This document shows, piece after piece, positions 8,242-34,060 of a DNA stretch of 41,781 bases (its first letter is position 1; the number at the start of each line of letters is the position of its first letter). The DNA lies in contig JALHUB010000251.1 of NCBI GenBank assembly GCA_022865685.1, forward strand, positions 1 to 41,781, in the 5' to 3' direction. The notes under the pieces were generated by a model. The model did not search any database. It was not told the origin of the DNA and was given only the letters and a program-made list of their open reading frames with translations. A program made the position numbers and the translations under genes. Source of the DNA: Dehalococcoidia bacterium. GTDB lineage: Bacteria > Chloroflexota > Dehalococcoidia > DSTF01 > JALHUB01.

Positions 8242-8277
8242 ACGTCCCCTCTACTATTCGGAAGCCGGGGGCATCCC

Positions 8278-8937: not shown

Positions 8938-8946
8938 CGCCTTTCA

Positions 8947-8976
8947 TTGACCGCCGTTTTCGCGCCTGCCTATAAT
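8947..8976 (+). promoter_or_regulatory. Strong sigma70-like promoter
   Basis: TTGACC (8947-8952), 18-nt spacer, perfect TATAAT (8971-8976), just upstream of the UPF0104 gene. Confidence 0.5.
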
Positions 8977-9019
8977 GTGTCACGTAGCGCGTCCGAACCT
9001 CTAGGTAGACCCGTCATGC

Positions 9020-17709: not shown

Positions 17710-17746
17710 CCCCTAAAGGATTCCCCTACTGCCGCCGAACATTACT
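17710..17746 (+). promoter_or_regulatory. Conserved 37-nt upstream motif, copy A (before the CAP-domain gene)
   Basis: CCCCTAaAGGaTTCCCCTACTGCCGccgAACattACT. Aligns with copy B at 26258-26294. Lies 60 nt upstream of ATG 17807. Confidence 0.4.
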
Positions 17747-18846: not shown

Positions 18847-20193
18847 TCAGAGGTCCACGAAGTAGAAGCTACACGCGATGTCGATGAGCTCCGGTCGCAG
18901 CTCTGGGCGCTCCCCGCGGTAGTTGGTGATAGACTCGATAAGCTCGACGATGTCGCGCGGATGGCAGCCACGCAGGGGCCGGTTCTTCGCGCCGTAGTGC
19001 TTGTCCATGAGGTATCGCAGCGCTTCTTCCGGGCAGGCGATCTCCTTGGACTCGCACACCTGCCGGAAGATGTGCTCGAAGTGGCACTGACTGGGGTCGG
19101 GCATCTCGATCTTGTGCCGAATGCGACGGAAGAAGGCCTCATCCCCAAGCTGCCGCGGCGGGATATTCGTCGAGAATACCAGCAATAGGTCGAACGGCAT
19201 GACGATCGTATCGCCGGTGTGCAGCGTCAGGTGATCGACGCCCTGCTCAAGGGGCACGATCCAGCGGTTCAGCAACTCCTTCGGCTCAATGAGCTGCCGC
19301 CCGAAGTCGTCGATGACGAGTACGCCGCTGTTCGCCTTGACTTGCAGCGGCGCTACGTAGAACTTGGACACGTCCGAGTAGCGAAGCTCCAGGTCCTGCA
19401 GACTGAGCGACCCGCCGGCCATCACCACCGGCCGCAGCGTCCTCACCCAGCGATGGTCGCGCCGCCGCTCGTCGGGCAGGCTCTCCAGAGTGCCGTCGCT
19501 CCGGCGGTCCGGATCCGTCTCATCCGGTATCTCGGCGTGCACGCGCGGGTCAAAGACCTTGATGATATGGCCGTTGTACTCGAACGCGTATGGGATTAGC
19601 ACCTGTCCCGGCAGCATCCGGCCGATGGCGCCGGCCGCGCTGCTCTTACCGTTACCGGAATTCCCATATAGCAGCATCGACCGGCCCGAATTGACGGCTG
19701 CCCCGAGCGCGTAGAGCGTCGTGTCGTCGAGGACGAGGTGCGCCAGCTCCTTCTTCTCGATATCGCTGTCAATGCGCAGGCCGCGCACCGACTGCCGGTG
19801 CTGCACCTCCACGTACTGCTCGAAAGCCACCGGCGCCGGTCCGTTGTACTGGCAGCGGCGCATCACCTCCTCCGCCTTCTCCATTCCCTTGACGGTCAGC
19901 GCATACTTGTACTGCGACTCGCCTGTCCCGCCGCTCCCCACTACCTCCACGTACTGCTCCCGCTTGAGGAAATCGAGAAGCTCCTCTACCACCGGGAAGG
20001 GCAGCATCATGTGGGCGCTGATCTGGCGCGCAACCGGCCTCCCCGCGAAGTAGATGCACTTGATGCACAAGTCGAGGAGGAGACCGGAGTGCAGCCCCGT
20101 CTCTTCGACGCTTTGCGGTTGGGAAATGAAGACGGTCGGCGGCGTGCTGTGGTGGTCTCGCTTAACCTCGATACCGACCTCGACCTGCTCCAT
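18847..20193 (-). CDS. AAA+ family ATPase of unknown function with N-terminal winged-helix-like domain
   Basis: Walker A LLYGNSGNGKSSAAG, Walker B VLVIDDFGRQ, sensor-1-like VFSTN, and Arg-rich FFRRIRHKIEMPDP. The N-terminal ~110 aa look like a wHTH (RQISAHMMLPFPVVEELLDFLKREQYVEVV). ATG 20193 has a GGAAGAGGAG SD, whereas the track start is TTG 20223. Confidence 0.7.
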   Translation of the reverse strand: MEQVEVGIEVKRDHHSTPPTVFISQPQSVEETGLHSGLLLDLCIKCIYFAGRPVARQISAHMMLPFPVVEELLDFLKREQYVEVVGSGGTGESQYKYALTVKGMEKAEEVMRRCQYNGPAPVAFEQYVEVQHRQSVRGLRIDSDIEKKELAHLVLDDTTLYALGAAVNSGRSMLLYGNSGNGKSSAAGAIGRMLPGQVLIPYAFEYNGHIIKVFDPRVHAEIPDETDPDRRSDGTLESLPDERRRDHRWVRTLRPVVMAGGSLSLQDLELRYSDVSKFYVAPLQVKANSGVLVIDDFGRQLIEPKELLNRWIVPLEQGVDHLTLHTGDTIVMPFDLLLVFSTNIPPRQLGDEAFFRRIRHKIEMPDPSQCHFEHIFRQVCESKEIACPEEALRYLMDKHYGAKNRPLRGCHPRDIVELIESITNYRGERPELRPELIDIACSFYFVDL

Positions 20194-20349
20194 CAGCTCC
20201 TCTTCCTGATTCGATCCGCGCAATAGCTAATGCGTAGACGGAGCCCGTCGCCGGGGTTGAGCCCGATGACCGGCAAATTGAGTATCGTATGAAAGCGTCG
20301 GCTTCTGAACAGCAAGGGCTTTCTCATAGCATTCGGCCCGTGGCCGTCG

Positions 20350-20826
20350 CTAGCCGGCGAGCAGGAGCTCACGCGTCAGATCACCCCAACTGAACATGAC
20401 CGTAGAAAGCCAGCGCGACGATTCGAAATACCCCGCGGCCCGCCATTGCTCCATCAGTTGTGTCAGTGTCGCAGGGACCGGCCCATCGGCGTAGAAATCG
20501 CTCGGCCGCAACACACCGAAGCTGTGGCGTACGGTCTCCTCGCTTTCCCCGCCGACGAGGCTGAGGGCCATCGTCACGTAGTCCAGCCCGTATGGGCGGC
20601 GCATCTGCGTCATCGTCGCGCGACACCATTGCAGAACGATGGAGTCGAGCTCGTCGGGTCGAACGGCCGTTGCCGGTTCGCCGCCCAGCTCCCAGCACAT
20701 GTGGTAGACTCCGACGCCCGCCTCAACGGCGTCCCGGACCTTCGACTCCGCCGACCCCTGTCTCAGCCGTCTTATCAGTGAAGCGAGGATCATGTTCCCT
20801 TGAACGGCGGGACCGCCCATGCGCAT
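20350..20826 (-). CDS. Hypothetical protein (158 aa), no recognisable domain
   Basis: Codon usage and third-position GC look coding. Co-directional with and 126 nt upstream of the AAA+ ATPase gene. No motif recognised. Start uncertain (20826 or 20793). Confidence 0.5.
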   Translation of the reverse strand: MRMGGPAVQGNMILASLIRRLRQGSAESKVRDAVEAGVGVYHMCWELGGEPATAVRPDELDSIVLQWCRATMTQMRRPYGLDYVTMALSLVGGESEETVRHSFGVLRPSDFYADGPVPATLTQLMEQWRAAGYFESSRWLSTVMFSWGDLTRELLLAG

Positions 20827-20950
20827 GCCCGCGACCCAACCTGGGCCGGCGCGGCGTCGCGAAAGGGCGTCCGTTTGAATTATCGGCAGAGGCGGGAGGA
20901 CGCTTCAGGTGCGGGCGCGTCGCAAGGCGCGAAGCTGGAGGGGAACAAGA

Positions 20951-21243: not shown

Positions 21244-22752
21244 TTACTCCGTCCGGCGGCGAGCCAGTCGCAGGCCGCTCAGCAGCAGCACAATGCCGCC
21301 CGCCGACAGGAGCACGCCGAAGATCGTCGGCCCTGACGGGGAGCCACCGCCGCTACCGGTGGGGGGCAGCTTTACGATCTCCAATACCTCAGTCACGGGC
21401 GTCGGCGCAACGAGCGTGGGTGCCGCTGTCGCCGTCGGCGCAGGCGTGCGCGTCTTGGTCGGCGTAGCCGTGTGGTGGTGCTCCTCAGTCGCCGTCGGCG
21501 GATGAGTGGCCGTCGCCGTAGCGGTAGGCGTGTCCGTTGGCAACGGAGTGGACGTCCCTGTCGCCGTTGGGGTGAACGTCTCCGTCGGCGGTGGCGTGAA
21601 GGTACGCGTTGCCGTCGCCGTTGGTGTCGCCGTCGATGTCGATGTTGGCGGTGGCGTGTAGGTACTGGTTGCCGTCGCCGTTGGTGTCGCCGTTGGTGTC
21701 GCCGTCGATGTTGGCGTCGGCGTGAAAGTGCTCGTTGCCGTCGCCGTTGCCGTCGCCGTAGGTGTCGCCGTCGATGTCGCCGTCGGTGTCGGTGTGAACG
21801 TGTTAGTAGGCGTTGCCGTACTGGTGTTGGTCGGCGTTGGCGTGAACGTGCTAGTCGGCGTCGCCGTCGGTGTATCCGTCGGCGTCGGTGTCGGCGTCGG
21901 CTGCACAATGGTGTTGGCCTGCATCTGGTTGTCGCGCTGGCCGATAGACGTGCCATCAAGCTCGACAGTCGCCACGTGGTACGGAGAGCCCGAGATCTCC
22001 GCAGCGCCTTTGCCGGTCCCCCAGTCGGCTTGACTGGCGACGTGGGCTCCCCAGGTAATCAAAACCTCACAGGTCGTCACGCCCTGTTTTGTGACCGGGT
22101 TAGCGCAGGTGAAGGTGTCGACGGTGAACGTCAGTTGAACGGTCGTTTCGCTATCCCCGGCGTAGCTGCCGCTAGCGAGCGTGGGCACGCCCACAACATC
22201 GATTGTCCCGTTGCGGATATAGAAGTGTTGGTCGCCAGCAGCGGTGTCAAACCCGTTGGCGTTCGGATCCGCCGGGATTGGCGGAGACGGGTTGGCAGTT
22301 AGTGTGCTGCAAGAAGCGAGATTGGTGATGGGAGGGTCACAGAAGTCAGCGGCCGTAATCCAGTCTTCCGAAAACAGGGGGTCCGTCAAGAAGTCGTACG
22401 CGTGCTTCCCGCCCTTCGTCGTGCCGTACGAGATGGTGACGGTGTGGGTACCGGTTATCAGTCCGTCGATCGCCAACCGCTGGACTGTCGCCTCCCCCTC
22501 CCTATAGAGGGAGTTGTTGTGCTGCAGGTTGCCATTGATCCAACGACAACCTGTGTCGCCGGTCGTGTAGCCGGTCCCTTGATCGTTCGAGCACTGGGAG
22601 TACAAGTCGATGCCGGCCTCGCCCGCTGCGACTGCCTTGCCGGGTCCGCTCCTACTGAGCGACACGAACAGAGCTAGTGCAGCGGCTGCAACGATACCGA
22701 GCAATAGCATCCAGCCTACACGGGTGCGTCCCATTTGAAATAGATCATTCAT
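21244..22752 (-). CDS. LPXTG-type (LPPTG) sortase-anchored surface protein with Thr/Pro-rich stalk
   Basis: N-terminal signal/TM ([19 protein letters not shown]) and a ~240-aa Cys-containing domain of unknown family. A ~170-aa TPTxT low-complexity stalk follows. The C-terminal sorting signal is LPPTG + [16 protein letters not shown] + [16 protein letters not shown] before ATG 22752. Confidence 0.85.
21397..21903 (-). repeat. Imperfect tandem coding repeats (Thr/Pro/Ala-rich stalk)
   Basis: Reiterated GTCGGCGT/GGTGT-type units on the plus strand encode (T/A)PT(A/S)T repeats. They also generate the Arg-rich shadow ORFs 21393..21959 and 21472..22302. Confidence 0.8.
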
Positions 22753-23202
22753 TGCGCTTGCCTCCTACGGCGAATCGTTCCGCCGACCCCGCGGCGAACA
22801 CGCGACCATTAGCCTATCCATCGCTTGCTGTCTTTCTCTCTCGCGTTGCCGCCGCGCCAATCGCAGACCGCCCATCAGCACGATGTGCCGGTCACTGACG
22901 AGACTGCAATCCCTCCGCGCCTGGGCCAGATCCCAGGACCGTCGGGGGTGATGCCACCTTGTTCGTATCATACCATACCCTGTCGGCATTTGCCGAATGA
23001 AAAACCGCCGCCTTCAGCTCAGAAGACAGCGGCTGAAGCGCTCCGAAAAAACCTCTTCGGCAGCCCGGCCGCCCTAGCCCCCTGTTCCCTGCCGTCGTCC
23101 TTGATAGCTACGCGGAGACCTTAGATCCGTGGCTTTGCGCCGGCCGGTTTCCCAGCCTTTGCCCTTTCGGAGACCGTATGTAGTTTTCACGAAGATAGAA
23201 TA

Positions 23203-23257: not shown

Positions 23258-23696
23258 AGAAAAGTCATGCCATGCTTTCGTTCTGGGAGCGTGGGATGGG
23301 AGGGGCCGAGCCATTCGGCCTGCGCCGCCAATCCGGCCACAAGAACCGTGATCGCGGCTCACGCCCCCCGAAAGCAGGGACACAGGCGACCCTATTGCCT
23401 GCTAGCATGGTTGCCCATGCTCACTTCTCGGAGGCTTCTTCTCTTGTCCAGGTGCCTGGCCGGACGCGATCCAAAACGGGGCGCCGCCCATTGCCCTTCC
23501 CGCCTAGAGCGGGTTTCCAGGCTGAGCCCCTACGCCTCCTTGCGAATTACAGGCCAGCAGGAAAAGGGTCGACAATAATGCTGAAAGAGCCTCAAGCTCC
23601 TGACGACTGGCCTCTTCCTTTAGGCCGGAATCAACGCCATGTTGTCACAACAGATGAGAGCTTGTCAAGTGGCCCTTTCTAACCACTCTGTCAGTA

Positions 23697-23786: not shown

Positions 23787-23939
23787 ATGATGAGAATATC
23801 TAGCGACAGAGCACAGACGACCGCCGAATACGGCCTCATCTTTGCCCTCGTCCTAGTCGCAGTCGTCGTAACCTTTGTCGCCGTCGGTGGTGCCGTGCAA
23901 GGTCTCTGGGACTCCTTCATCACCGCCTGGCCTGCATAA
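23787..23939 (+). CDS. flp: Flp-family type IVb prepilin (copy 1, 50 aa)
   Basis: MMRISSDRAQTTAEYGLIFALVLVAVVVTF... carries the Flp xQTxAEYGLI motif followed by a hydrophobic helix. The track ORF from 23697 is a 5' extension. Confidence 0.8.
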   Translation: MMRISSDRAQTTAEYGLIFALVLVAVVVTFVAVGGAVQGLWDSFITAWPA

Positions 23940-24086
23940 AGCACCCGTAGAGAGGCCGCAGCCGGACTCCTCAGCCACACGCGGGCGCTAACGCCTGCAT
24001 TTGGCCTCGGGGGAGCCGCCCCTGCAACTTCGACAGGGGTTAAGACGAACGGCTGATAAGCCGACCTAACTGGTGGGAGACAAATC

Positions 24087-26201
24087 TTGGCGCTCAGAAT
24101 CGCATCGATCGCTGCCGCAGCCGTCGGGATCGCCGCGTTCGCATCCACTCTGACGGCCGGCGCGCAGGAGGCCAACGGCGTTACCGTCGATGTCGCCAGC
24201 GTGGACGGCAGCCGCTTCCCCAGCCTGTCCGCCGTTGTCAACGTCCTCGACGCTAAGGGCCGCCCCGTCGCCGGCCTCGACACCGCAAGCTTCAGCGCCA
24301 CGATAGACGGCCGGCCCGCAATCGTCGAAGGACTCCAGTCCGTCGTCGACTCGCAGGTCAGCCTCTCCGTCGTCCTGGCCGTCGATGCCAGCGGCAGCAT
24401 GGCAGGCACACCGCTGAGCGCCGCACAGTCGGCCGCCGCGGAGTTCGTGAATGGCCTTTCGCCCCAGGACTCCGTCGCCGTCCTCGCGTTCAGCGACACC
24501 GTGACGGCCGTCCAGGAGCCGACGCCGGACAAGGCGACGGCCATCGGCGCCCTTCAAAACCTCACCGCCGCCGGCGATACGGCGCTCTTCGAGGCCACGA
24601 GCCGTGCCGCGGCCAAAGCCCTCGAATCGTCGTCACCGCGGCGCGTCGTCATCCTGCTGAGCGACGGCGTCGACTACGGTGGCAAGAGCAGCGTCACGCG
24701 CGACGACTCCATAGCCCAGGCGCGGGCCACCGGCGTTCCCATATACACCATCGCCCTCGGCGCCGAAGTCGACAAGGCCTACCTCAACGATCTGGCGCAG
24801 GCCACCGGAGCTCGTTTCCTGGAGGCACCCAGCCCGGAGGGTCTGTCGCAGCTCTACGCTGGCATCGCCGCCGTCCTGCGTGGCCAGTATGTCGTCGCGA
24901 TGCAGTCCCCCGCCGTCGACGTCGCGGCTTCACATGAACTCGAGCTGTCTGTCACCGTCGGAGGCACGACAGCCGTTGCCTCGAAAAGCGTCGCGTTTGC
25001 CGCGTCTGGCCAGTCCTCCCAGGTGACGCTCGAGGGGATTCGCTCCGGCGAAGATGTGAAGTCCGCCGTCACCGTCACCGCCCGGGTAAACGGCGGCGCG
25101 CCGACCGAGGTGCGCTTCCTCGTCGACGGAACGGCGGTGGCAACCGCTACGGCTCCTCCATACCAAGCGGCTCTCGATCCTGCCGCGCTGGCGAACGGAA
25201 ATCACACCCTGCGGGTCGAGGCAAGGGACGCGACAGGGATCCTGGGGTCTTCAGAGATCGGCTTCGCGGTCCCAGCCGCCGCGGCAGGCGGGACCAGCAA
25301 AGTGCCGCTGTTCGCGGCGCTTCTTGCGGTCATGGCGGCGACGGTGGTCATCTACGTATTGCGCCGGCGGCGCCCCCGTGTGAAACGACAGGTGGTCGAG
25401 GTGCGCCTGAAACCGTGGTCGAACAACACGCTGGTAGCGGGCAGCGTGTCGCTGGTCGACGAGGAGCCGGTACCCCCGCCGGCGCCCGAGCCCGTTGGGC
25501 GGCCCGGCGGCAAGCTGATCATCGTCGATGGACCTGACGCCGGCCGGGAATACCCCGTCGGCATGAGCCCCCTCAGCATCGGCAGCGCAAGCTGGTGCGA
25601 CATAACGTTCCCCGATCCGGACGAGCGCATAGGACCCGAAGAAGCGCGGGCCTGGGTCCACCAGGACAAGCTGATCTTCCACAAGTTGACGCGGCTCTCG
25701 CTCCTCGCCAGCGATGGGGCGGTCGGCGGCTGGCTCGTCCTGGAAAACGGTGACGAGGTGAACGTCGGCCACTTCCGGCTACGCTTCATCTCGCTGGCGC
25801 ACACGGCGGCGGAGCAAGACGTCCTCAACAGGGCAGTGAACGAAGCCGTGCAGCACCTCGCGGGCCGTGCCTCGGGTGGCGGAGTGGCCTCCCGGCTCTG
25901 GCCCGTTCACGACCTGCCCCCGCAGGCGCCCCAGGCCGAAGAGATGGGCCCGCAACTCGCCCCGTTCGAGATCGTGCCTGTCGACAACCCGCCGGTCGAA
26001 GCGCCCGAATCGAGAGAAGAGAACCCCGAGCCCGCACGTCCCAGGCTGTGGCCCGTCGACGACCCTCCCGTCGATTTGGCGGAGTCGGAAGACGTGGCCA
26101 ATCAACCCGATCCGTTCGAGCTCTGGCCCGTCGACGACTCGTCCGGCGAGCTGCACGGGCGAGAGGAAGATTCCGAACATCCGGCTGCCGCCTCCGTCTG
26201 A
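24087..26201 (+). CDS. Single-pass membrane protein: signal peptide, extracellular vWA + Ig-like domains, TM helix, cytoplasmic FHA domain, acidic repeat tail
   Basis: Signal AAAAVGIAAFASTLTAGAQEA. vWA MIDAS VLAVDASGSMAG...GDTALFEA...VILLSDGVDYGG. TM helix VPLFAALLAVMAATVVIYVL followed by RRRRP. FHA-like segment GKLIIVDGPDAGREYPVGMSPLSIGSASWCDITFPD...NGDEVNVGHFRLRF. Four C-terminal WPVDD-type repeats. Confidence 0.85.
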   Translation: MALRIASIAAAAVGIAAFASTLTAGAQEANGVTVDVASVDGSRFPSLSAVVNVLDAKGRPVAGLDTASFSATIDGRPAIVEGLQSVVDSQVSLSVVLAVDASGSMAGTPLSAAQSAAAEFVNGLSPQDSVAVLAFSDTVTAVQEPTPDKATAIGALQNLTAAGDTALFEATSRAAAKALESSSPRRVVILLSDGVDYGGKSSVTRDDSIAQARATGVPIYTIALGAEVDKAYLNDLAQATGARFLEAPSPEGLSQLYAGIAAVLRGQYVVAMQSPAVDVAASHELELSVTVGGTTAVASKSVAFAASGQSSQVTLEGIRSGEDVKSAVTVTARVNGGAPTEVRFLVDGTAVATATAPPYQAALDPAALANGNHTLRVEARDATGILGSSEIGFAVPAAAAGGTSKVPLFAALLAVMAATVVIYVLRRRRPRVKRQVVEVRLKPWSNNTLVAGSVSLVDEEPVPPPAPEPVGRPGGKLIIVDGPDAGREYPVGMSPLSIGSASWCDITFPDPDERIGPEEARAWVHQDKLIFHKLTRLSLLASDGAVGGWLVLENGDEVNVGHFRLRFISLAHTAAEQDVLNRAVNEAVQHLAGRASGGGVASRLWPVHDLPPQAPQAEEMGPQLAPFEIVPVDNPPVEAPESREENPEPARPRLWPVDDPPVDLAESEDVANQPDPFELWPVDDSSGELHGREEDSEHPAAASV
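25893..26156 (+). repeat. Four ~25-aa acidic repeats within the vWA-FHA protein tail
   Basis: RLWPVHDLPP (aa 603), FEIVPVDNPP (627), RLWPVDDPPV (653) and FELWPVDDSS (677), each followed by a Glu/Asp-rich stretch. The Trp/Val positions are spaced 25 aa apart. Confidence 0.75.
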
Positions 26202-26257
26202 CCCGTAGGACAGCCTCCCTTACTCTCGCAGTATCGCCTCGAATCCCTACGCATAAA

Positions 26258-26294
26258 CCCCTACAGGCTTTCCCCTAGCTGCCGATAACTAACT
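26258..26294 (+). promoter_or_regulatory. Conserved 37-nt upstream motif, copy B (before the ECF sigma gene)
   Basis: CCCCTAcAGGcTTTCCCCTAGCTGCCGatAACtaACT. Aligns with copy A at 17710-17746. Lies ~80 nt upstream of GTG 26374. Confidence 0.4.
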
Positions 26295-26373
26295 TAGGCG
26301 AACCCCCTAAGGGATACCGCCTACGGGGGAAGCACTACAACGTATCGCTACTCCGTCCTGTGGGGTTAATGCG

Positions 26374-26940
26374 GTGCTCAAACTCGACATACCGCCGGTG
26401 ACCGACGAGAGGATGCTCGTGCAGCGGGCGATTCTTCACGACAGTGAAGCCTTCGCCGGGCTCTACGATCGTCACGTCGTCCGCGTCTACCGGCACATCT
26501 ACTACATCATCAATGACCAGAAAGAGGCTGAAGACTTAACCGCCCAGACCTTCCTCCAGGCCTGGGAGGCGATCGGCCGTTTCCAACCTAGGGGTGCTCC
26601 CTTCGCATCGTGGTTGCTGCGCATCGCTCACAACCTGGCGGTCAGTCATCTGCGCGCCCGGAAGGGGGATGCGCAGCTCCACGAGTCACTTATCGACGAC
26701 GGCCTGCCCCGCAATCCCGAAGCAGTGGCCCAACGCCATGCCGAAGAGGAACGGGTCCGTCAGGCCGTCCTGCGCCTCGGCGACGACCAGCGGCAGGTCA
26801 TCATCCTGCGCTTCGTCGAGGAGCTGGACTATAAGGAAGTCGCCGAGATTCTCGGCAAAAGCGTGGCTGCGGTGCGCGTAATCCAGCACCGCGCCCTGTG
26901 CGCCCTGCGCAAGATCATGAAGGTGGAAGAGGTTGCCTAG
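26374..26940 (+). CDS. ECF-type sigma-70 family RNA polymerase sigma factor
   Basis: Region 2 (FAGLYDRHVVRVYRHIYYII...AEDLTAQTFLQAWEAIGRF...SWLLRIAHNLAVSHLR) and region 4 HTH (QRQVIILRFVEELDYKEVAEILGKSVAAVRVIQHRAL). Confidence 0.9.
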   Translation: MLKLDIPPVTDERMLVQRAILHDSEAFAGLYDRHVVRVYRHIYYIINDQKEAEDLTAQTFLQAWEAIGRFQPRGAPFASWLLRIAHNLAVSHLRARKGDAQLHESLIDDGLPRNPEAVAQRHAEEERVRQAVLRLGDDQRQVIILRFVEELDYKEVAEILGKSVAAVRVIQHRALCALRKIMKVEEVA

Positions 26941-27196
26941 CATCATCGAGGCGCTAGCCGATTGCCTGGAAGCCATGCGTGGGGGCGTGGAAATGGAGGT
27001 ATGTTTGGCGATGTACCCGGAGTGTCGCGCCGAACTGAAACCGTTACTGCAAATCGCGAGCCTCCTGCGGCCGCTGCCGCCGGAGATAACACCGTCGTCC
27101 GTCTTCAAAGAACGCACCAGGGTCCAGATCCTGGAGCGCCCCGAGGGACAGGACGGGACGTCGCTCGCGCCGGACCGGCCGTCGGGGAAGTTCTGA
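26933..27196 (+). CDS. Putative short anti-sigma factor (no TM segment)
   Basis: TTG start overlaps the sigma stop by 8 nt, with GGTGGAAGAGG upstream. IIEALADCLEAMRGGVEMEVCLAMYPECRAELKPLLQIA resembles the N-terminal helical domain found after ECF sigmas in Chloroflexi and Firmicutes. Only 87 aa, with no membrane or sensor part. Confidence 0.5.
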   Translation: MPSIIEALADCLEAMRGGVEMEVCLAMYPECRAELKPLLQIASLLRPLPPEITPSSVFKERTRVQILERPEGQDGTSLAPDRPSGKF

Positions 27197-27423
27197 CGGT
27201 GAATTGCGCGGACGGGGGAATAGGGCTCCCACCCGCAGCGAACTGGACTAATTTGGCCAGAGATGGCTTCTAAGCCGGTCACAAAGGAGGTGAGGCCCGC
27301 AAGGACTGACAGATACCCGGAGAACATCCGCCGCTCCCCGCCGGCAGCGGGCATTGGGCCTGACTCGCGGGAAGCGGTGATGAAGAAAACTCGAACAACA
27401 CTCAACATACTAGGAGGAAACAG

Positions 27424-27612
27424 ATGCGTTTCATTAATGACACCCTTCTCCGGCTTTACTGCTGGGCGAAGGACGAGACGGCCCAGACGATGGCCGAGTA
27501 CGGCCTGATCCTGGCCCTGATTTCGGTCGCCGCCATTGCCGCCCTGGTGCTCTTGGGGCCGCAGCTCAGGGCTATCTTCGACAGGATCACGGCAGCGCTA
27601 CAGGTGGCCTAG
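27424..27612 (+). CDS. flp: Flp-family type IVb prepilin (copy 2, 62 aa)
   Basis: AGGAGG SD at 27412-27417. ...KDETAQTMAEYGLILALISVAAIAALVLLG... is the Flp motif plus a hydrophobic helix. Confidence 0.88.
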   Translation: MRFINDTLLRLYCWAKDETAQTMAEYGLILALISVAAIAALVLLGPQLRAIFDRITAALQVA

Positions 27613-27630
27613 GGCGCTTCGCTGCAAACC

Positions 27631-27668
27631 CGAAAGGGGTGGGGAGGACCTCCTCCCCACCCCTTTCG
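27631..27668 (+). terminator. Strong hairpin after flp2
   Basis: CGAAAGGGGTGGGGAGG-acct-CCTCCCCACCCCTTTCG, a 17-bp perfect stem starting 19 nt after the flp2 stop. No U-tract follows. Confidence 0.6.
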
Positions 27669-27803
27669 ATCCCGATCGGGGCAACCACGCCATCGACGGA
27701 TCTGGAACCTGCGACAGGAATCCTTCCATCGGTCGATAATCAAAAGGGTAGCCGAAACCAGGAACCGAGTTGACGGTAGTAAGGCAGCCTATCATGTCGA
27801 AGG

Positions 27804-28053
27804 GCAACGGACTGCTAGATCGGCATGGCGGCGACGCGGTGGACGTCAGCGTGAAATCCTGGTACTACCCCAGCTACCCGGACCCGCCACATCAAGCGTT
27901 GCCGGCGTCGCCTGTGACGCGATCGAGGTTGAAGTAGACTGCGATCACCACTTCATAACGCCGCTGATCTCCAGCATCGTCAGTCACGTTCCTCTGAGCG
28001 AACGGTCTCGTGTCATGAACGAGCCATTTGGCCCCTGTGGCGCGGGTCACTGA
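27804..28053 (+). pseudogene. Possible degraded TadE/TadG-like pseudopilin remnant
   Basis: Frame 1 (no start codon) reads ...ACDAIEVEVDCDHHFITPLISSIVSHVPLSERSRVMNEPFGP*. This resembles the C-terminal beta-strand/FITPL tail of TadE-like proteins. Frame 3 upstream reads GDAVDVSVKSWYYPSYP. No N-terminal TM or prepilin segment is present. Confidence 0.3.
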
Positions 28054-28238
28054 CGGGGCGTCGTGGGAACCTGGGCGCGAATCTTCGGGGGAAGGCGGCG
28101 CATCGTGTTTCGGGGGTCAAGGCTTACCCATTGTGGCCGATACTCTTATAGGTGAGCTTGCCCAGCACTTAACCTGGCATTCGCTCCGACCGCGCTCGTA
28201 GCGGCGGGACGCTGATGCAGCAAACTGGAGGTAGCCCC

Positions 28239-29060
28239 ATGGCTAGAGCAGGAGCCGGCGGGTCGGTAGGTAGAATCAATGGTCGCTTCGCGCTGCTGAC
28301 CATCGTATGCGGGATCCTCAGCGCCGTCCTCGTATACGCCGCCATCGCGCGCAACGGCGGCGCCAAGCAGACCGCGTCCGCGGAGACGACAGCCGCGACC
28401 GTCATCGCGGCTGTGGACATCCCGGCGCGCACCGAGATCACCGCCGAGATGGTCGAGCTGAGAGACGTGCCGGTCAGCGGAAGGGCAGCCATGGCCCTCA
28501 GCAGCATCGACGACGTTGTTGGCAAAGTGACGCGGTACCCCGTTGTCCTCGACGATCAGCTAACTCTGAGCAAGGTTGTCTCGGTGGACGGAAGCGAAAA
28601 CGTCGACTCCCTCGCATTCGTGGTGCCGGATGGAAAGAGAGCCATCTCCATCTCCGCTGACCAGGTGCTCAGCGCCGGCGGCCTGGTATTGCCGGGGGAC
28701 TACGTTGACATAATGGGCGTTCTCTCCGGAACAAAGCCGGATGGCAGTGAAGTCGACAACTACGTCGTCAAGACCATCCTCCAGAACGTGCAGGTGCTTG
28801 CCGTGGCGCAGACCATCGCCGACGCGCCTGCCGGCGGAGAAGCCACAGCGAGCGACGGCCAGAAGGGTAGCAGCTCAGAGTCCAAGCCGAACCCCGAGGC
28901 GACGACGCTGACCATTCTCGTCTCGCCCGAGCAGGCCCAAACGCTGTTCTTGGCTGAATCCAACGGCACTCTGCGAGCAGTCGTTCGCGGCTACGGCGAT
29001 GCGAACGTGACGGAGCTGGCGCCCATCTATCAGAACCAGCTCACGCCGCCAGTGCCTTAA
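28239..29060 (+). CDS. cpaB: Flp pilus assembly protein CpaB/RcpC
   Basis: GGAGG SD before ATG 28239. N-terminal TM anchor (FALLTIVCGILSAVLVYAAI), SAF domain (VIAAVDIPARTEITAEMVELRDVP) and RcpC-type C-terminal domain. Confidence 0.85.
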   Translation: MARAGAGGSVGRINGRFALLTIVCGILSAVLVYAAIARNGGAKQTASAETTAATVIAAVDIPARTEITAEMVELRDVPVSGRAAMALSSIDDVVGKVTRYPVVLDDQLTLSKVVSVDGSENVDSLAFVVPDGKRAISISADQVLSAGGLVLPGDYVDIMGVLSGTKPDGSEVDNYVVKTILQNVQVLAVAQTIADAPAGGEATASDGQKGSSSESKPNPEATTLTILVSPEQAQTLFLAESNGTLRAVVRGYGDANVTELAPIYQNQLTPPVP

Positions 29061-29122
29061 CAGGCTCGGTCTTCGCAGGACAAGCACGAGAACCATTACA
29101 CACTTCGAGAACAGGGAAGTCG

Positions 29123-30310
29123 ATGGCAAGAACTCCGGAAGCCGTAATCATTGACCCAGACCTCGGCACGCGAGCCGACATCAAGCGGGCACTCATGCTG
29201 GCGCATTTCACCGTGTCGGGCGAAGCAGGCTACGGCATCGAAGCCGTCACCGTTGCTAAGGAACAGGTGCCCGATGTCTTCGTCGTGAGCGCTGAAGAAC
29301 CGGTCGCACGCGCCCTCCAGACGATCGAAGCCCTGGGCGACGCCCTGCCCGACACGCCGACCATCGTCTACTCCTCGCTCGCCGACGCTGCCTCCGTCCG
29401 GCGCGCCATGGTCTCGGGCGCTCGCGACTACCTCATCAAGCCTGTCAAGCCCGAGGACCTGACCCGTGCCATCTACGGCGTCATGGGGCAGGAGGAAAGG
29501 CGGCGCATGCGTGCCTCCGGCGAGCGCCAGGAGGCGCCCGCACACGGCACCGTAATCACCGTCTTCGGCGCCAAGGGCGGAATCGGCAAGACGACCATTT
29601 CGACGAATCTCGCTACTGCTCTCGTTCGCGCCACCAGCAGCACCGTTGTTCTCGTCGACATGGACACGCGTTTCGGCGACGTCGCCATCATGATGGATGT
29701 GGCCGTCGAGCAGAGCATCGCCGACCTGGCACGCCGCGTCGGCGAAATGGACCGCGACACGGTGCGCGACTACCTGGTCCGCCACCACAGCGGGGTCATG
29801 ATCCTGCCTGCGCCCCTGCATCCTACGGAGTGGCGCAACGTCACGCCGCAGCAAATCACCAAGATCATCAACCTGCTCGCAGAGTCCTACGACTACGTTA
29901 TCGTTGACACCCCAGGCACGTTCAACGAGATCGTCGCCGTGACGCTGGAGTCGGCTGGCCTCATTCTCCTCGTCACGAGCATGGACATAGCCAGCATCAA
30001 GGACACCGCGCTTGCCCTGGAGATGCTCCAGAGCGCCGACGTCTCCGAAGACAAAGTCAAGCTCATGATCAACCACTCCACGGCGGCCAACACGCTGCGC
30101 GAGGAGGACGTCGAGCGCGTACTGGAGTACAAGGTGTTCTGGCGCATCCCTCACGACCTCAACGTCGCAACCAGCACGCAGCTTGGCCAGCCGGTCGTCA
30201 TTACCAAGCCCTACGCCAGAGTTTCGCGCAGCATCAGCGACCTCGCCGCGGCTCTCAGAGGCACGGTGACGGAGAAGAAGGGCTTCCTGGAGAGGTTCTT
30301 GGGACATTGA
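29123..30310 (+). CDS. cpaE: CpaE/TadZ-like pilus localisation ATPase (atypical receiver + MinD/ParA domain)
   Basis: Receiver-like N-terminus in which Ser replaces the phospho-acceptor Asp (PDVFVVSAEEP). Deviant Walker A FGAKGGIGKTTISTNLA. YVIVDTPG Walker B region. Confidence 0.85.
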   Translation: MARTPEAVIIDPDLGTRADIKRALMLAHFTVSGEAGYGIEAVTVAKEQVPDVFVVSAEEPVARALQTIEALGDALPDTPTIVYSSLADAASVRRAMVSGARDYLIKPVKPEDLTRAIYGVMGQEERRRMRASGERQEAPAHGTVITVFGAKGGIGKTTISTNLATALVRATSSTVVLVDMDTRFGDVAIMMDVAVEQSIADLARRVGEMDRDTVRDYLVRHHSGVMILPAPLHPTEWRNVTPQQITKIINLLAESYDYVIVDTPGTFNEIVAVTLESAGLILLVTSMDIASIKDTALALEMLQSADVSEDKVKLMINHSTAANTLREEDVERVLEYKVFWRIPHDLNVATSTQLGQPVVITKPYARVSRSISDLAAALRGTVTEKKGFLERFLGH

Positions 30311-30351
30311 ACCGATGAGCCGCACGTTCACCAAAAGGAGTTGAACGCACC

Positions 30352-31716
30352 ATGACTCAGTTCCAGTGGCAAGCACGAAAAACAGGCGCCGACGCCGGTG
30401 AGGGCGGCGGCCTTCGACGTCCTACCACCTCTTCCAGCCTTCTACAGACCAGCGAGGCGCTCACCGAACTCAAGTACAAGCTCCACCAGCGCCTCATCGA
30501 AGAGCTGGACCCGGGCAAACTGGACGGCCTGGAGCCCGCGAAGGCGCGCGAAGCCGTCGAGAGTTCCGCCCGTACCCTTATCTCCCAGGAGATGCCGGGA
30601 ATAGTCGGCGTTACCAGGGACGAGCTTGTCTCCGCCGTCGCGGACGAGGTCCTCGGTCTCGGACCTATCGAGCCAATGGTAAGGGACAAATCCATTTCGG
30701 AAATAATGGTCAACGCGCCCGACACCATCTTCTTCGAGAAGGAAGGTCGCATCTTCCTTAGCCCCATCCGGTTCCGCGACTCCAACCATATCCAGCGCAT
30801 CGCGGAGCGCATCATTGCGCCGCTGGGCCGCCGCGTCGACGAGTCATCGCCCATGGTGGACGCGCGCCTGGCCGATGGCTCCCGTGTCAACATCATCATC
30901 CCGCCCGTCGCTCCCAAGAGTCCCACGATCACGATCCGTAAGTTCCGCGAGGACAAGATGACGGCGGAGGACCTTATCAGCACAGGCACTCTTACCCGCG
31001 AGCTCTGTGAGTTCCTGCGCGCCTGTGTCCAGGTGCGGCTGAACATCGTCATCTCCGGCGGCACGGGTACTGGCAAAACGACTCTACTTAACGCCCTCTC
31101 CGCTTTCATTCCAGACACGGAACGAATCATCACAATCGAAGACCCGACCGAGCTTAAGCTTCAGCAGGGTCACGTCGTTAGCCTGGAGGCGAGGCCGGCA
31201 AGCCTGGAAGGAAAGGGTGAGGTCACACAGAGAGACCTCGTTCGCAACTGCCTCCGCATGCGCCCCGACAGGATTCTCGTCGGTGAGGTGCGCGGTCCGG
31301 AAGCCTTCGACATGATGCAGGCCATGAACACAGGCCACGAAGGCTCCATTACCACCGTTCACTCCAACTCCCCGCGCGACGCTCTCGCGCGCATAGAGAA
31401 CATGATACTAATGGCCGGCCTGGAGCTACCCATGCGGGCCATCCGGGAACAGATGGCCTCCGCTGTCCACATGGTCATTCAGATAGCCCGTCTGCCTGAC
31501 GGCACGCGCAAGGTCACGGCCGTCGCCGAGGTCACCGGCATGGAGGGGCAGGTGGTGACCATGCAGGACCTCTTCCGCTTTGATCAAAAGGGCATCGACA
31601 ACGAAGGACACGTAATCGGCGAGTTCCACTTCACCGGCATCCGTCCGCAGTTTGCAGAGAAATTCAAGCTAGCCGGCGTCGAGCTCCCGCAGGACATCTT
31701 CGGTCCGGGGTGGTGA
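30352..31716 (+). CDS. cpaF: CpaF/TadA secretion ATPase
   Basis: Walker [17 protein letters not shown], Asp box [12 protein letters not shown], Walker [13 protein letters not shown] and His box [21 protein letters not shown]. Confidence 0.93.
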
Positions 31717-31720
31717 TAGC

Positions 31721-32716
31721 ATGGATCCCCTGGCATTAGCCGCGGCCCTTTCCGTGATGGTCACGGTCGTCATGGTGTTCGCCGTCTTCTACATGACCTC
31801 GATCGCTGGAAGCAACAAGCGCGTCGTGAACCGGCTCGAACACGTTGTCAATCGTAGTCCGCTAGAAGGGCTCACCACCGTCTCGGCTCTCAAGCAGACC
31901 GGCGGCGGCCTCTTCCCGACGCTCGGCAGTCTGCTGACCGGCAAGGAATGGGCCAACAAGGTCAACATCGATTTGGAGCGCGCGAACCTCAAGCTGCGTG
32001 TCGGTGAGTACCTCGCTCTACGCGTGGCCATCGCTCTGGTGGTCCTCGCGGTCGTGATATTCGTCGCAGGCCGGGGCGGACTGGGGCTCGTCGCGGGCAT
32101 TGCTGCCGCGCTGGTGGGCTACATGCTGCCCAAGATGTACCTTCGCCGTCGCATCAAGGCGCGACTTACCACGTTCGACGAACAGCTTGTGGAGGCGCTC
32201 AGTCTCGTCTCCAACGCCCTGCGCTCCGGATTCGGCTTTCTGCAGAGCATGGACCTTGCGGCCGAGCAACTGAACGACCCCCTGGCCATCGAGTTCAAGC
32301 GCACCATCAACGACATCAACGTCGGCGCCAGCTTCGAGGACGCGCTCCTGGCGCTGAACCAGCGGGTCGAGAGCAAAGACCTGGACATAGTCGTCACCGC
32401 CATCCTGATCCAGCGCACGGTCGGCGGAAACCTCGCGGAGATATTGGAGACCGTCGCCTACACCATGAGAGATCGCTCCCGCATTAAGGGCGAGTTGCGG
32501 ACGCTGACCGCGCAGCAGAAGATGTCCGGGTATATCGTCGGCGGACTGCCTATCTTCATCATCGGCATCCTGCTTCTCATGGGTAAATTGATGGGCGATA
32601 CCTACATGCAGACTCTGTTCACGGAGACCGCCGGCCGGGTGGCCCTGATGGCCGCGGTACTCCTCGAGGGACTTGGGATAATGATTATTCGCAAGATCCT
32701 CGCCATCGAGGTTTAG
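31721..32716 (+). CDS. tadB: TadB (type II secretion system F-domain platform protein)
   Basis: N-terminal TM, a central cytoplasmic T2SSF domain (FDEQLVEALSLVSNALRSGFGFLQSM...) and two C-terminal TM helices. Position immediately after cpaF. Confidence 0.85.
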   Translation: MDPLALAAALSVMVTVVMVFAVFYMTSIAGSNKRVVNRLEHVVNRSPLEGLTTVSALKQTGGGLFPTLGSLLTGKEWANKVNIDLERANLKLRVGEYLALRVAIALVVLAVVIFVAGRGGLGLVAGIAAALVGYMLPKMYLRRRIKARLTTFDEQLVEALSLVSNALRSGFGFLQSMDLAAEQLNDPLAIEFKRTINDINVGASFEDALLALNQRVESKDLDIVVTAILIQRTVGGNLAEILETVAYTMRDRSRIKGELRTLTAQQKMSGYIVGGLPIFIIGILLLMGKLMGDTYMQTLFTETAGRVALMAAVLLEGLGIMIIRKILAIEV

Positions 32717-32727
32717 CGGAGATCGAA

Positions 32728-33633
32728 ATGGCACTACTCGCAGCGGCATCGGTATTTGTCACCGTCGTCATGTTCGCGCTATCCTTGCGCAAGACTGACG
32801 ACAACCCCATCAGAGCCCGCGTCGCCGGCCTTGCGACGTCGCGCATGTTCGAGGGCGGGCAGCCCGCAACATCCTTCGGCGAGCGTATCATCGGACCGCT
32901 GTTCGGAGGCGTCGCGGACAAGGCCGTCGCTATGCTTCCCCAGGGCATGCTCGAGCGGCTGAAGCTCCAGCTTGTGCGGGCCGGTGATCCCATGACACCG
33001 GCGGGGTTCATGATGGTCCGCATGATCGCCGGCGGAGTCCTGGCGGGGCTTGGCCTTTCCGTGGGCGTCGCGATGAGAGGGACGCTGGATGCCAAATCCC
33101 TCGCCCTGGCGGTCGTGCTCGGCGGCGTCGGCGCCTTCCTGCCCTCAATGTGGCTGTCCAGTCGCGTGCGCCAGCGTCAGACCGAGATCATCAAGAGCCT
33201 GCCCGATTCCTTCGATATGATCACTACCTGCGTCGAAGCCGGCCTCGGCCTCGATGCTGCCCTGACGCGAGTCGCCGAGAAGGTGAAGGGCGCCTTCGCC
33301 GAGGACCTTTCCATTACCCTGCGCGAGATAGGGATGGGCCGTAATCGCGTCGAAGCCCTGCAAGACCTGGCCAATCACACCGGCGTCGCGGACCTGACTC
33401 TGTTTGTGAACGCTATAGTACAGGCGGAGCAGCTGGGCACGAGCATTGGCCAGGTGCTGAGGGTGCAGTCGGAGCAGATGCGGATACGCCGCCGTCAGCG
33501 CGCTGAAGAGGCGGCCAACAAGGCGCCCGTGAAGATGATCTTCCCGCTCGTCCTGTGTATCCTTCCTACGTTGTTCATCGTGATCATGGGACCCGCCGCA
33601 ATCCAGCTCTACGAATCGTTCAGCAAGAACTAG
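32728..33633 (+). CDS. tadC: TadC (type II secretion system F-domain platform protein)
   Basis: Same T2SSF architecture (IIKSLPDSFDMITTCVEAGLGLDAAL...QLGTSIGQVLRVQSEQMR). Second paralogue after tadB. Confidence 0.85.
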   Translation: MALLAAASVFVTVVMFALSLRKTDDNPIRARVAGLATSRMFEGGQPATSFGERIIGPLFGGVADKAVAMLPQGMLERLKLQLVRAGDPMTPAGFMMVRMIAGGVLAGLGLSVGVAMRGTLDAKSLALAVVLGGVGAFLPSMWLSSRVRQRQTEIIKSLPDSFDMITTCVEAGLGLDAALTRVAEKVKGAFAEDLSITLREIGMGRNRVEALQDLANHTGVADLTLFVNAIVQAEQLGTSIGQVLRVQSEQMRIRRRQRAEEAANKAPVKMIFPLVLCILPTLFIVIMGPAAIQLYESFSKN

Positions 33634-33640
33634 GTGACGC

Positions 33641-33985
33641 GTGCGAATTGAAAACGCCTCGCGCGGCGCCCAGGTGGCCGACCGCGCGGTCCTTGCTAAC
33701 ACGCCCTTGGCGCGGCTGGTGGGCCTCCTCAACCGCCGTCACCTGGAGCCCGGCGAAGGCCTCGTCCTGGTGCCCGGCGGCGCGATCCACATGTTCTTCA
33801 TGCGCATGGCAATCGACGTCATCTTCGCCGACAAAGAGGGGAACGTCCTGAAGACGGCCGTGAACGTGAAGCCCTGGCGGATGGTGATGGCGCCTCGACA
33901 CACGCGCTATACCATCGAGCTACCTGTCGGCGTCATCGAAGCTTCCGGCACGCAGCCCGGCGACCACCTCGAAATCACCTCATAG
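33641..33985 (+). CDS. DUF192 (COG1430) domain protein
   Basis: ADRAVLANTPLARLVGLLNRRHLEPGEGLVLVPGGAIHMFFMRMAIDVIFADKEGNVLK...YTIELPVG matches the DUF192 pattern. GTG start 8 nt after the tadC stop. Confidence 0.8.
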   Translation: MRIENASRGAQVADRAVLANTPLARLVGLLNRRHLEPGEGLVLVPGGAIHMFFMRMAIDVIFADKEGNVLKTAVNVKPWRMVMAPRHTRYTIELPVGVIEASGTQPGDHLEITS

Positions 33986-34006
33986 CATCGCCGACCGTGA
34001 GATGCG

Positions 34007-34037
34007 GAGACGCCCGCGGGTTGGCCGCAGGCGTCTC
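34007..34037. terminator. Bidirectional hairpin between convergent DUF192 and thiolase genes
   Basis: GAGACGCC (34007-34014) pairs with GGCGTCTC (34030-34037). An inner GCGG...CCGC extension is also present. Confidence 0.5.
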
Positions 34038-34060
34038 GAAGAGCTATCTGTCCGACTGCT

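Follow-up and report, generated by a model that had tools for sequence, protein, structure and literature searches.

Organization of the tad locus

The DNA analysed here, referred to throughout as the window, is a 41.8-kb chromosome segment (41,781 nucleotides, nt; ~64% G+C) of an uncultured member of the Chloroflexota (Dehalococcoidia) from soil and peat. Between positions 23787 and 33985 it carries a Tad/Flp pilus gene cluster that also holds the genes for a vWA-Ig-TM-FHA protein (with a single transmembrane segment, TM), a sigma factor of the extracytoplasmic function (ECF) type and a small protein of 87 amino acids (aa). Open reading frames (ORFs) were listed and translated, and the window proteins were then scanned against Pfam and NCBIfam. 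Read along the forward strand, the genes and associated elements of the cluster are as follows.

23787..23939 (+): flp1, a 50-aa Flp-type pilin (Class_IIIsignal 7.7e-6, above cutoff; Flp_Fap 0.0098)
24087..26201 (+): vWA-Ig-TM-FHA protein, 704 aa, single-pass (Pfam VWA 2e-18, Big_7 1e-9; signal peptide, one TM)
26259..26289 (+): ECF-type promoter-like motif CCCTACAG-N13-TGCCGATAAC, ~85-88 nt 5' of the ECF gene
26374..26940 (+): ECF (group 4) sigma factor, 188 aa (Sigma70_r2 1.5e-17, r4 7e-13)
26933..27196 (+): 87-aa soluble protein, putatively an anti-sigma factor of class-I-like type; translationally coupled, with an 8-nt overlap between its start and the sigma stop codon
27424..27612 (+): flp2, a 62-aa Flp pilin (Flp_Fap 1.1e-9, above cutoff)
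27631..27668 (+): perfect 17-bp hairpin just 3' of flp2 (RNAfold), kept in the sister species L091
27839..28047 (+): frameshifted TadE-like C-terminal remnant (tblastn with L002 proteins)
28114..28144 (+): ECF-type promoter-like motif GGGTCAAG-N13-GGCCGATACT, ~71-74 nt 5' of cpaB
28215..29060 (+): cpaB/rcpC (RcpC 5e-28, SAF; TIGR03177 4.7e-44, above cutoff)
29123..30310 (+): tadZ/cpaE, a ParA/MinD-type ATPase with an N-terminal receiver domain (Response_reg 1.4e-10, AAA_31, ParA)
30352..31716 (+): cpaF/tadA secretion ATPase (T2SSE 1.3e-66)
31721..32716 (+): tadB platform protein (T2SSF 4.5e-20)
32728..33633 (+): tadC platform protein (T2SSF 8.9e-20)
33641..33985 (+): DUF192 protein, the last gene of the operon (PF02643 9e-19)

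The core of a Tad/Flp system is present, namely Flp pilins with a class III leader and EY motif, CpaF, two T2SSF proteins, TadZ and CpaB. The receiver domain of TadZ is atypical, with a serine at the phospho-acceptor position (read by eye). A first-pass annotation of this DNA had proposed the same gene order and had described the locus as secretin-less. Both descriptions hold: every gene was found at its place by ORF, Pfam and NCBIfam analysis, and Pfam scans of the long ORFs of the window returned neither a secretin nor a TPR pilotin/TadD. The missing secretin and pilotin fit a monoderm envelope; an acidobacterial locus used for comparison (L053) does carry both. The other long ORFs of the window are housekeeping genes (SMC, FtsY, MutS, MutL and others), and a simple sigma-70 and terminator scan gave matches at background level.

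Conservation of the vWA-FHA/ECF block

Two comparative sets were assembled. A CpaF-anchored scan of a genome collection gave 80 loci, with which all window proteins were compared by tblastn, and metagenome contigs fetched via the FHA-like domain gave a further 37 loci. The nearest genome loci belong to Dehalococcoidia metagenome-assembled genomes (MAGs) from SPRUCE peat, with a CpaF identity of 89%. In the CpaF-anchored set, at least 13 species-level Chloroflexota (Dehalococcoidia) genomes (L002, L004-L006, L008-L013, L016, L025 and L028) have the vWA-FHA gene and, after it, the ECF gene immediately 5' of cpaB-tadZ-cpaF-tadB-tadC. Among complete genomes, the closest ones, OZ252017.1 and OZ240228.1, have this locus type too. 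The ECF sigma factor is 94-96% identical in L001/L002; L002 and L004 also have an flp1 orthologue, placed 5' of the vWA-FHA gene. Among the FHA-anchored metagenome contigs, the ECF gene comes next in about 27 of the 28 that have enough downstream sequence, and every long contig runs on into Tad genes. The order is found also in L089, where the vWA-FHA protein is only 40% identical and the genes read vWA-FHA, ECF, 84-aa protein, flp, flp and TadE. As a block, the genes for the vWA-FHA protein, the ECF sigma factor and the small protein belong to the ancestral, conserved make-up of this locus type; they are not, as first proposed, a regulatory insert by which the pilus genes are interrupted. Related vWA/FHA genes also occur at tad loci that have no ECF gene (L029, L043, L032-L041).

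Two other origins of this arrangement were considered, a chimeric assembly and a strain-specific accidental insertion. Both were rejected, because the exact CpaF protein of the window is encoded on 18 contigs from several samples, the independent conspecific contig L081 is collinear over window positions 24251-33972 at 98.8% nucleotide identity, and the same gene order recurs in other species. Comparative genomics, named in the first-pass annotation as a way to check the vWA-FHA and ECF genes, finds both conserved at tad loci. An exact-sequence look-up of the window vWA-FHA protein returned no identical protein. The population is represented in peat and soil samples (ENA ERZ272476xx-ERZ272480xx, JGI 3300035701, SPRUCE).

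The ECF sigma factor and a promoter-like motif

The sigma protein combines Sigma70_r2 with Sigma70_r4/r4_2 and reaches 106.7 bits with TIGR02937 (cutoff 42.9). Its best NCBIfam match is the BldN-family model TIGR02952, at 139.3 bits and below the cutoff of 206.45. Inspection of upstream regions revealed a bipartite motif of about CCCTCAAG, N13-14, TGCCGATAC. As a simple pattern it occurs three times in the window versus 0.54 expected, and two of the matches sit 5' of the ECF gene and cpaB. Over the window and 47 loci together (766 kb), 17 of 29 plus-strand matches lie at most 260 nt 5' of the ECF gene (7), cpaB (8) or the vWA-FHA gene (2); the whole minus strand of the same 766 kb holds seven matches. 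A position weight matrix (PWM) scan placed 25 of 37 matches 5' of cpaB (12), the ECF gene (8), the vWA-FHA gene (3), a 158-aa protein gene and a CAP gene (for both, see below), and the sites outside its training set include those in L003, L012, L014, L015 and L028 and the one before the window 158-aa gene.

With the PWM, the motif lies 69-115 nt 5' of the ECF gene in eight loci; the window shares its ECF-gene motif with L004, L005, L006, L008, L015, L025, L028 and L089. The motif also precedes the vWA-FHA gene in L011, L016, L028 and L089. The last of these loci comes from outside the annotation database and has three untrained sites, hand-placed 5' of vWA-FHA, ECF and flp. Before cpaB, 10 of 19 loci with an ECF gene have the motif, versus one of 17 without (Fisher p=0.0034). 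An autoregulated ECF regulon classically shows a motif both ahead of the sigma gene and ahead of an adjoining operon, and the site 5' of the ECF gene is a candidate autoregulated promoter on computational grounds. The gating of the pilus genes by a sigma factor, suggested in the first-pass annotation, thereby gains computational support from the motif before the ECF gene and cpaB and from its co-occurrence with the ECF gene.

The same data bear on the idea of an independent envelope-signalling module, made up of the vWA-FHA, ECF and small-protein genes, that only adjoins the tad genes without being tied to them in regulation. ECF sigma factors commonly control envelope stress regulons, and the window flp1, flp2 and vWA-FHA genes, which have no strong motif, would agree with such a module. 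However, one and the same motif stands 5' of the ECF gene and of cpaB, the cpaB motif tends to go together with an ECF gene, and gene order is strictly kept over wide divergence. We therefore consider an independent module very improbable.

The 87-aa protein

A small ORF is present 3' of the ECF gene in most loci, and in close relatives its start overlaps the sigma stop codon. Among the matches listed (the best 120 of 168), the family consists of 67-114-aa proteins without a Pfam domain, with the conserved core RPLP..V.PS..F....R.RLL. The AlphaFold2 (AF2) model of the window protein, with a predicted local distance difference test score (pLDDT) of 79, has helices at residues 4-16, 21-27 and 29-44, followed by a linker and a helix at 56-68. 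The class I anti-sigma domain has been described as a three-helix bundle plus a fourth helix, and about a third of the factors that carry it are soluble (PMC7406223). The predicted topology of the 87-aa protein is consistent with this description; going by its genetic context, a putative role as a soluble, class-I-like anti-sigma factor is likely.

A weak NCBIfam anti-sigmaE match (E=0.021) was recorded for the window protein. Three homologues gave weak T2SSF matches (E 0.01-0.13), which were treated as non-significant. That the protein might be a truncated membrane anti-sigma factor was rejected, as the listed homologues (120 of 168) are all 67-114 aa long.

The vWA-Ig-TM-FHA protein

The 704-aa protein is composed of a signal peptide, an extracytoplasmic vWA domain, a Big_7 Ig-like domain, a TM at ~406-428 followed by RRRR, a cytoplasmic FHA domain at ~475-570 and an acidic tail. 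The metal ion-dependent adhesion site (MIDAS, DxSxS..T..D) of the vWA domain is intact: across 76 full-length family members, D100, S102, T165 and D193 each reach a conservation of 90% or more, as judged from the alignment consensus together with a DxSxS check. We found no published description of a vWA-Ig-TM-FHA architecture, or of an in-locus ECF sigma factor, at tad loci.

The cytoplasmic domain adopts an FHA fold with a degenerate pocket. A profile of the domain run against PDB sequences retrieved the GarA/OdhI FHA domain at E=4.7e-5, and Foldseek with the AF2 model (pLDDT 85.5) returned many FHA structures at a TM-score of ~0.7 and a probability of 1.0, among them ArnA (5a8i, rank 22) and YscD/PscD (4a0e, 6uid). 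Weak Pfam Yop-YscD_cpl matches were obtained as well. The Arg, Ser, His and Asn of the phosphothreonine (pThr) pocket are replaced in all 150 best representatives (Arg in 0/150), with G-[S/T/A] standing for G-R and (G/A)(P/A)EEA for SxxHA. Invariant across the same representatives are instead R, W, H and W. Replacement of the pThr residues combined with invariance elsewhere points to a conserved docking module that neither binds phosphopeptides nor serves as a kinase-dependent checkpoint. A canonical phospho-dependent FHA domain was rejected on the same residues, and of the FHA-based checkpoint that had been postulated for this locus the fold is present, while its phospho-dependent operation is unlikely.

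The family is large. An exhaustive search with the FHA-like profile gave 1321 representative clusters at E<=0.001 and 316 (at 50% identity) at E<=1e-10, and about half of the top matches are full-length proteins of the same architecture. In a word-indexed database, a profile search with the domain returned short fragments without annotation only. The acidic, Pro-rich tail contains three WPV[DH]D motifs (residues 605-684, window 25899-26140). Of 38 close homologues, 13 contain one to three copies, compared to none of the 71 distant representatives, and the motif was rejected as a family feature since it is confined to close relatives.

What the vWA-FHA protein does for the locus can be read in two ways. 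It could act in trans-envelope signalling, mainly as the sensor of a split anti-sigma system and not as a structural component. Its vWA(MIDAS)-Ig ectodomain would sense a surface ligand or the pilus, and the signal would travel along the TM to the degenerate FHA domain, which would capture or release the 87-aa protein and so free the ECF sigma factor to turn on pilus assembly. The genes for the three proteins are almost always adjacent; the 87-aa protein has neither membrane anchor nor sensor domain and would need an input; a copy of the ECF-type motif stands 5' of the vWA-FHA gene in the four loci named above; and group ECF289 provides a precedent in its vWA-containing anti-sigma factor (PMC7826278). 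On the other hand, vWA-TadB fusions in Actinobacteria and the vWA/FHA genes at ECF-less tad loci indicate that the machine is the primary partner. For these two reasons a machine-associated accessory role is favoured, and the sensor function is regarded as the main alternative, tentative and clearly less probable.

Minor pilins, prepilin peptidase and selection on the locus

In the closest relatives, L001-L005, intact TadE, TadG(vWA) and TadE genes lie between flp2 and cpaB. In L002 this interval measures 2.7 kb and codes for two TadE-like proteins, the second of 173 aa, on either side of a 422-aa TadG-like protein that contains a vWA domain. The window has about 600 bp without an intact ORF between flp2 and cpaB, including a remnant of the last ~70 codons of the third gene (residues 103-172 of the 173-aa orthologue, 67% identity, one frameshift). 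On the DNA level, window 27533-27901 corresponds to L002 5161-7550, with similarity resuming at 27901 (L002 7550); about 2.0 kb are missing, comprising TadE, TadG(vWA) and most of the second TadE. An identical short gap is present in four independent conspecific contigs and the same deletion in the sister species L091 (ECF sigma 97% identical), where the flanking genes and the cpaB motif are intact. Because it is shared in this way, the deletion is real and older than the split from L091. No intact TadE/F/G was detected in the window, by Pfam scans or by tblastn with orthologous TadE/TadG. The first-pass annotation was right about the lack of intact pseudopilins and about the TadE-like remnant, which is genuine, but the lack is not a design feature of the locus: the closest relatives keep the genes, and their loss is a lineage-specific deletion of ~2 kb.

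A neighbouring clade (L006, L008-L016, L025 and L028) has no TadE/G within 10 kb and keeps the operon. Several MAGs hold a second tad locus with TadE/G (e.g. L013 with L026, and L007 with L024), and a supply of minor pilins in trans is plausible. The prepilin peptidase is likewise absent from the window. Pfam, a GxGD[V]K regular expression and tblastn with Chloroflexota A24 peptidases all came back empty for the window, in agreement with the earlier report of no TadV/CpaA, nor is an A24 peptidase encoded in loci L001-L028 at a distance of up to 10 kb from cpaF. The peptidase does not belong to the locus in this clade. More distant Chloroflexota (L029, L035, L038, L040, L041, L043 and L047) and Acidobacteriota have in-locus A24 peptidases.

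Among conspecific contigs, about 80% of nucleotide differences are synonymous. CpaF differs at 2-15 nucleotides and the ECF sigma factor at 3, with no amino-acid difference in either. Polymorphism along the operon peaks in the remnant, at 2.3-3.5% plus an indel. The remaining genes are under purifying selection, and the machine is maintained without in-locus minor pilins, which implies that the missing parts come from elsewhere or are dispensable.

These data also allow for an assessment of whether the locus is decaying, in the sense that the loss of the minor pilins, together with that of a 422-aa lipoprotein gene in this strain, left a non-functional pilus of which the other genes are relics. 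The ~2-kb deletion with its frameshifted remnant, the second, strain-specific loss of 1.4 kb after DUF192 (see below), the lack of a peptidase in the window and the Ala that replaces the usual Gly before the predicted cleavage site of both Flp pilins would be in line with decay. Conversely, all 11 other genes are intact, the differences are mostly synonymous and leave CpaF and the ECF sigma factor unchanged, the deletion predates a split after which L091 kept its flanking genes and cpaB motif, and an entire clade retains the operon without in-locus minor pilins. Decay is thus improbable.

The pilin genes themselves show several further features. Processing is predicted at A|QTTAEYGLI in flp1 and at A|QTMAEYGLI in flp2; both pilins have Ala before this site (RA|QTTAEY, TA|QTMAEY), and in relatives most of the orthologues have Gly (G|QTLAEY). 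The 227 nt 5' of flp2 (27197-27423) are free of polymorphism among conspecific contigs, compared to 0.3-1.4% in neighbouring genes, and a conserved AGGAGGTGA(A/G)GCC element is located ~150 nt 5' of the flp2 start codon. With regard to a structured RNA in the flp2 leader, Rfam returned no match and an alignment of ten leaders was highly divergent. The 17-bp hairpin after flp2 is likely a terminator or an mRNA-stabilising element, and the upstream region and the hairpin may serve as regulatory leader and terminator for the major pilin transcript. At 23639-23672, 5' of flp1, a near-perfect inverted repeat ATGTTGTCACAACAG is followed by TTGTCAAG, an arrangement conserved in L002 and L004; repeat and TTGTCAAG are candidates for an operator and a -35 element distinct from the ECF-type motif.

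Genes and elements flanking the cluster

To the left of flp1, the following features are encoded on the reverse strand.

18847-20223 (-): 458-aa AAA+ ATPase of an uncharacterised Tad-associated family, linked to tad in two phyla
20350-20826 (-): 158-aa protein gene, the first of this two-gene operon
20879..20910 (-): third copy of the ECF-type motif (PWM 18.1 bits, untrained site), 53 nt 5' of the 158-aa gene
23056..23173 (-): c-di-GMP-I riboswitch (Rfam RF01051, 64.1 bits against a gathering threshold of 35, E=7e-11, model positions 1-87 of 87)

The AAA+ ATPase has no PDB or NCBIfam relative. Members of its family accompany tad genes in 12 Chloroflexota loci, at 54-59% identity; at 34-39% they are also embedded in over 20 acidobacterial tad operons, there following a TadD-like TPR gene, for example in L053 with the order TadV, CpaB, secretin, TadG, TadE, TadZ, TadA, TadB, TadC, TPR protein, AAA+ ATPase and SLT. 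The riboswitch, divergent from flp1, is followed by a terminator-like hairpin (23034-23003). Further copies were found in L002 (834-952), L004 (309-432 and 573-701), L005 (410-523) and L009 (3684-3766), and none in seven other loci. In L009 the riboswitch lies immediately 5' of the 158-aa/AAA+ operon; in the window it precedes the gene of a Thr/Pro-rich surface protein (21244-22752, reverse strand). This 502-aa protein has an N-terminal TM or signal sequence, a domain of ~250 aa, long Thr/Pro repeats and a C-terminal LPPTGSGG + TM + RRRTE (a sortase-type signal). It has no Pfam or NCBIfam match, and its layout fits a monoderm envelope and an adhesin role. A weaker copy of the motif (17711-17745, forward strand) is located 62 nt 5' of a membrane-anchored CAP/YkwD-family gene (17807-18676). 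The L009 orthologue of this CAP gene has a strong copy (204-235, 24.4 bits), and a CAP gene is found near the tad locus in at least eight Chloroflexota loci.

On the right, DUF192 (COG1430) is the conserved final gene after tadC in most Chloroflexota tad loci among L001-L041; we found no literature that links DUF192 to Flp pili. Comparison of window 33973-34058 with L081 9723-11126 shows that the window is without a 1.4-kb segment present in six conspecific contigs and in L002. The segment encodes a 422-aa lipoprotein-like protein (FxLYD match) between the DUF192 and thiolase genes, and the 3' end of the window DUF192 gene is 6% divergent. The difference is a strain-level indel or recombination.

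Comparison with known systems

Actinobacterial Tad systems have the same core of Flp, TadZ, TadA, TadB and TadC, with CpaB in some, and their peptidase is often encoded elsewhere. The absence of secretin, TadD and RcpB is also shared with these monoderm systems, for example those of Bifidobacterium breve, Micrococcus luteus (tad/competence) and Mycobacterium tuberculosis (Flp) (see also PMC4322843, PMC9531140). They differ in that an in-locus ECF/anti-sigma pair or a vWA-Ig-TM-FHA protein is not known from them, and in that the minor pilins are deleted here. A Nocardioidaceae locus (L087) with the order cpaB-tadZ-tadA-[vWA-TadB]-tadC-flp-flp (vWA-TadB at 8001-10001) likewise combines a related extracytoplasmic vWA domain with a secretin-less Tad machine, and neither TadE/F/G nor TadV is encoded within it. 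Its vWA domain is fused to TadB and no ECF gene is present, whereas in the window it belongs to a separate single-pass FHA protein.

FHA-domain proteins within Tad-type machines are known from the Kil system of Myxococcus xanthus and from class III CpaF (PMC8460266; PMC12019362). Those are diderm systems with a secretin, and their FHA domain is cytoplasmic or fused to the ATPase; in the window, the FHA pocket is lost, the domain is tethered to an extracellular vWA domain, and CpaF has no FHA domain. A pairing of FHA and vWA at a type IV filament system is also seen in ArnA (FHA) and ArnB (vWA) of the Sulfolobus archaellum. ArnA and ArnB are separate cytoplasmic proteins under Ser/Thr kinases. 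Here, both domains belong to one membrane protein, the vWA domain lying outside the cell and a phospho-blind FHA domain in the cytoplasm, and the likeness is one of domain folds only. The type III secretion proteins YscD/PscD are single-pass machine proteins as well, with a cytoplasmic FHA fold that acts as a docking module without phosphopeptide binding. The ectodomain differs (vWA and Ig in the window, with no evidence of a ring), and this likeness too is confined to the fold.

As regards the sigma factor, pairs of ECF and class I anti-sigma factors such as ECF289 and BldN/RsbN (ECF121) share with the window locus a two-domain sigma, a small co-transcribed partner and an autoregulation-type promoter. 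The window locus differs from them in a score below the BldN family cutoff, in a soluble 87-aa partner of an undescribed family without a detectable anti-sigma domain signature and in a pilus assembly operon as proposed target.

Interpretation and significance

Taken together, the cluster is best described as a monoderm-type, secretin-less Tad/Flp type IVc system under a dedicated ECF sigma factor, with the vWA-FHA protein as an accessory of the machine, a reading to which we assign a probability of about 0.55. The ECF sigma factor would transcribe its own gene and cpaB-tadZ-cpaF-tadB-tadC-DUF192 from CCCTCAAG, N13-14, TGCCGATAC, with transcript 5' ends expected ~7-10 nt 3' of GCCGATAC, and in the window genome it probably also drives the neighbouring 158-aa/AAA+ operon. 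The co-translated, helical 87-aa protein most likely keeps the sigma factor inactive. The vWA-FHA protein may bind a ligand or pilus component on the outside and dock a cytoplasmic partner on the inside, which makes it the best candidate for coupling surface events to sigma release. flp1 and flp2 would be separate transcription units, and minor pilins and prepilin peptidase would either be encoded at another place in the genome or not be needed.

Several observations weigh against this description. High-scoring cpaB motifs are missing from 9 of 19 ECF-carrying loci, in several of which flp directly precedes cpaB, and in the window the PWM scan gave no motif of at least 15 bits for flp1, flp2 or the vWA-FHA gene. 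That this particular sigma factor recognises the motif is inferred only from where the motif sits, from the logic of autoregulation and from co-occurrence. For the 87-aa protein, neither sequence (Pfam) nor fold (Foldseek against the PDB) gave a significant match to known anti-sigma domains. No Ser/Thr kinase or phosphatase was seen, which fits a non-phospho FHA domain. Lastly, TadE/TadF-type minor pilins are essential in the Tad systems studied, so that pilus assembly from a locus lacking them may depend on a supply in trans.

A more far-reaching proposal would join all parts into a three-part trans-envelope switch for a type IV filament of monoderm bacteria, of a kind not known to have been described, with a MIDAS-vWA/Ig sensor linked by the TM to a phospho-blind FHA domain, a very small soluble anti-sigma factor of a new family, and an ECF sigma factor acting on both the Tad genes and the AAA+ operon behind a c-di-GMP riboswitch. 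We consider it speculative and rather unlikely. If true, it would amount to contact- or ligand-triggered pilus production integrated with c-di-GMP.

Tad pili are major organelles of adhesion, surface sensing and DNA uptake, and mechanistic knowledge of them comes almost entirely from diderm Proteobacteria. The locus type described here is a widespread Chloroflexota variant with a proposed built-in ECF regulon and a recognisable promoter-like motif. It includes a conserved vWA-Ig-TM-FHA protein without counterpart in model Tad systems, and in two phyla tad operons are associated with an AAA+ ATPase of an uncharacterised family. Although the hosts are uncultured, the promoter, the sigma/partner pair and the FHA-like docking domain are open to heterologous reconstitution. 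Moreover, the deletion, in a lineage that keeps the rest of the locus under selection, constitutes a natural experiment on the supply of minor pilins in trans.

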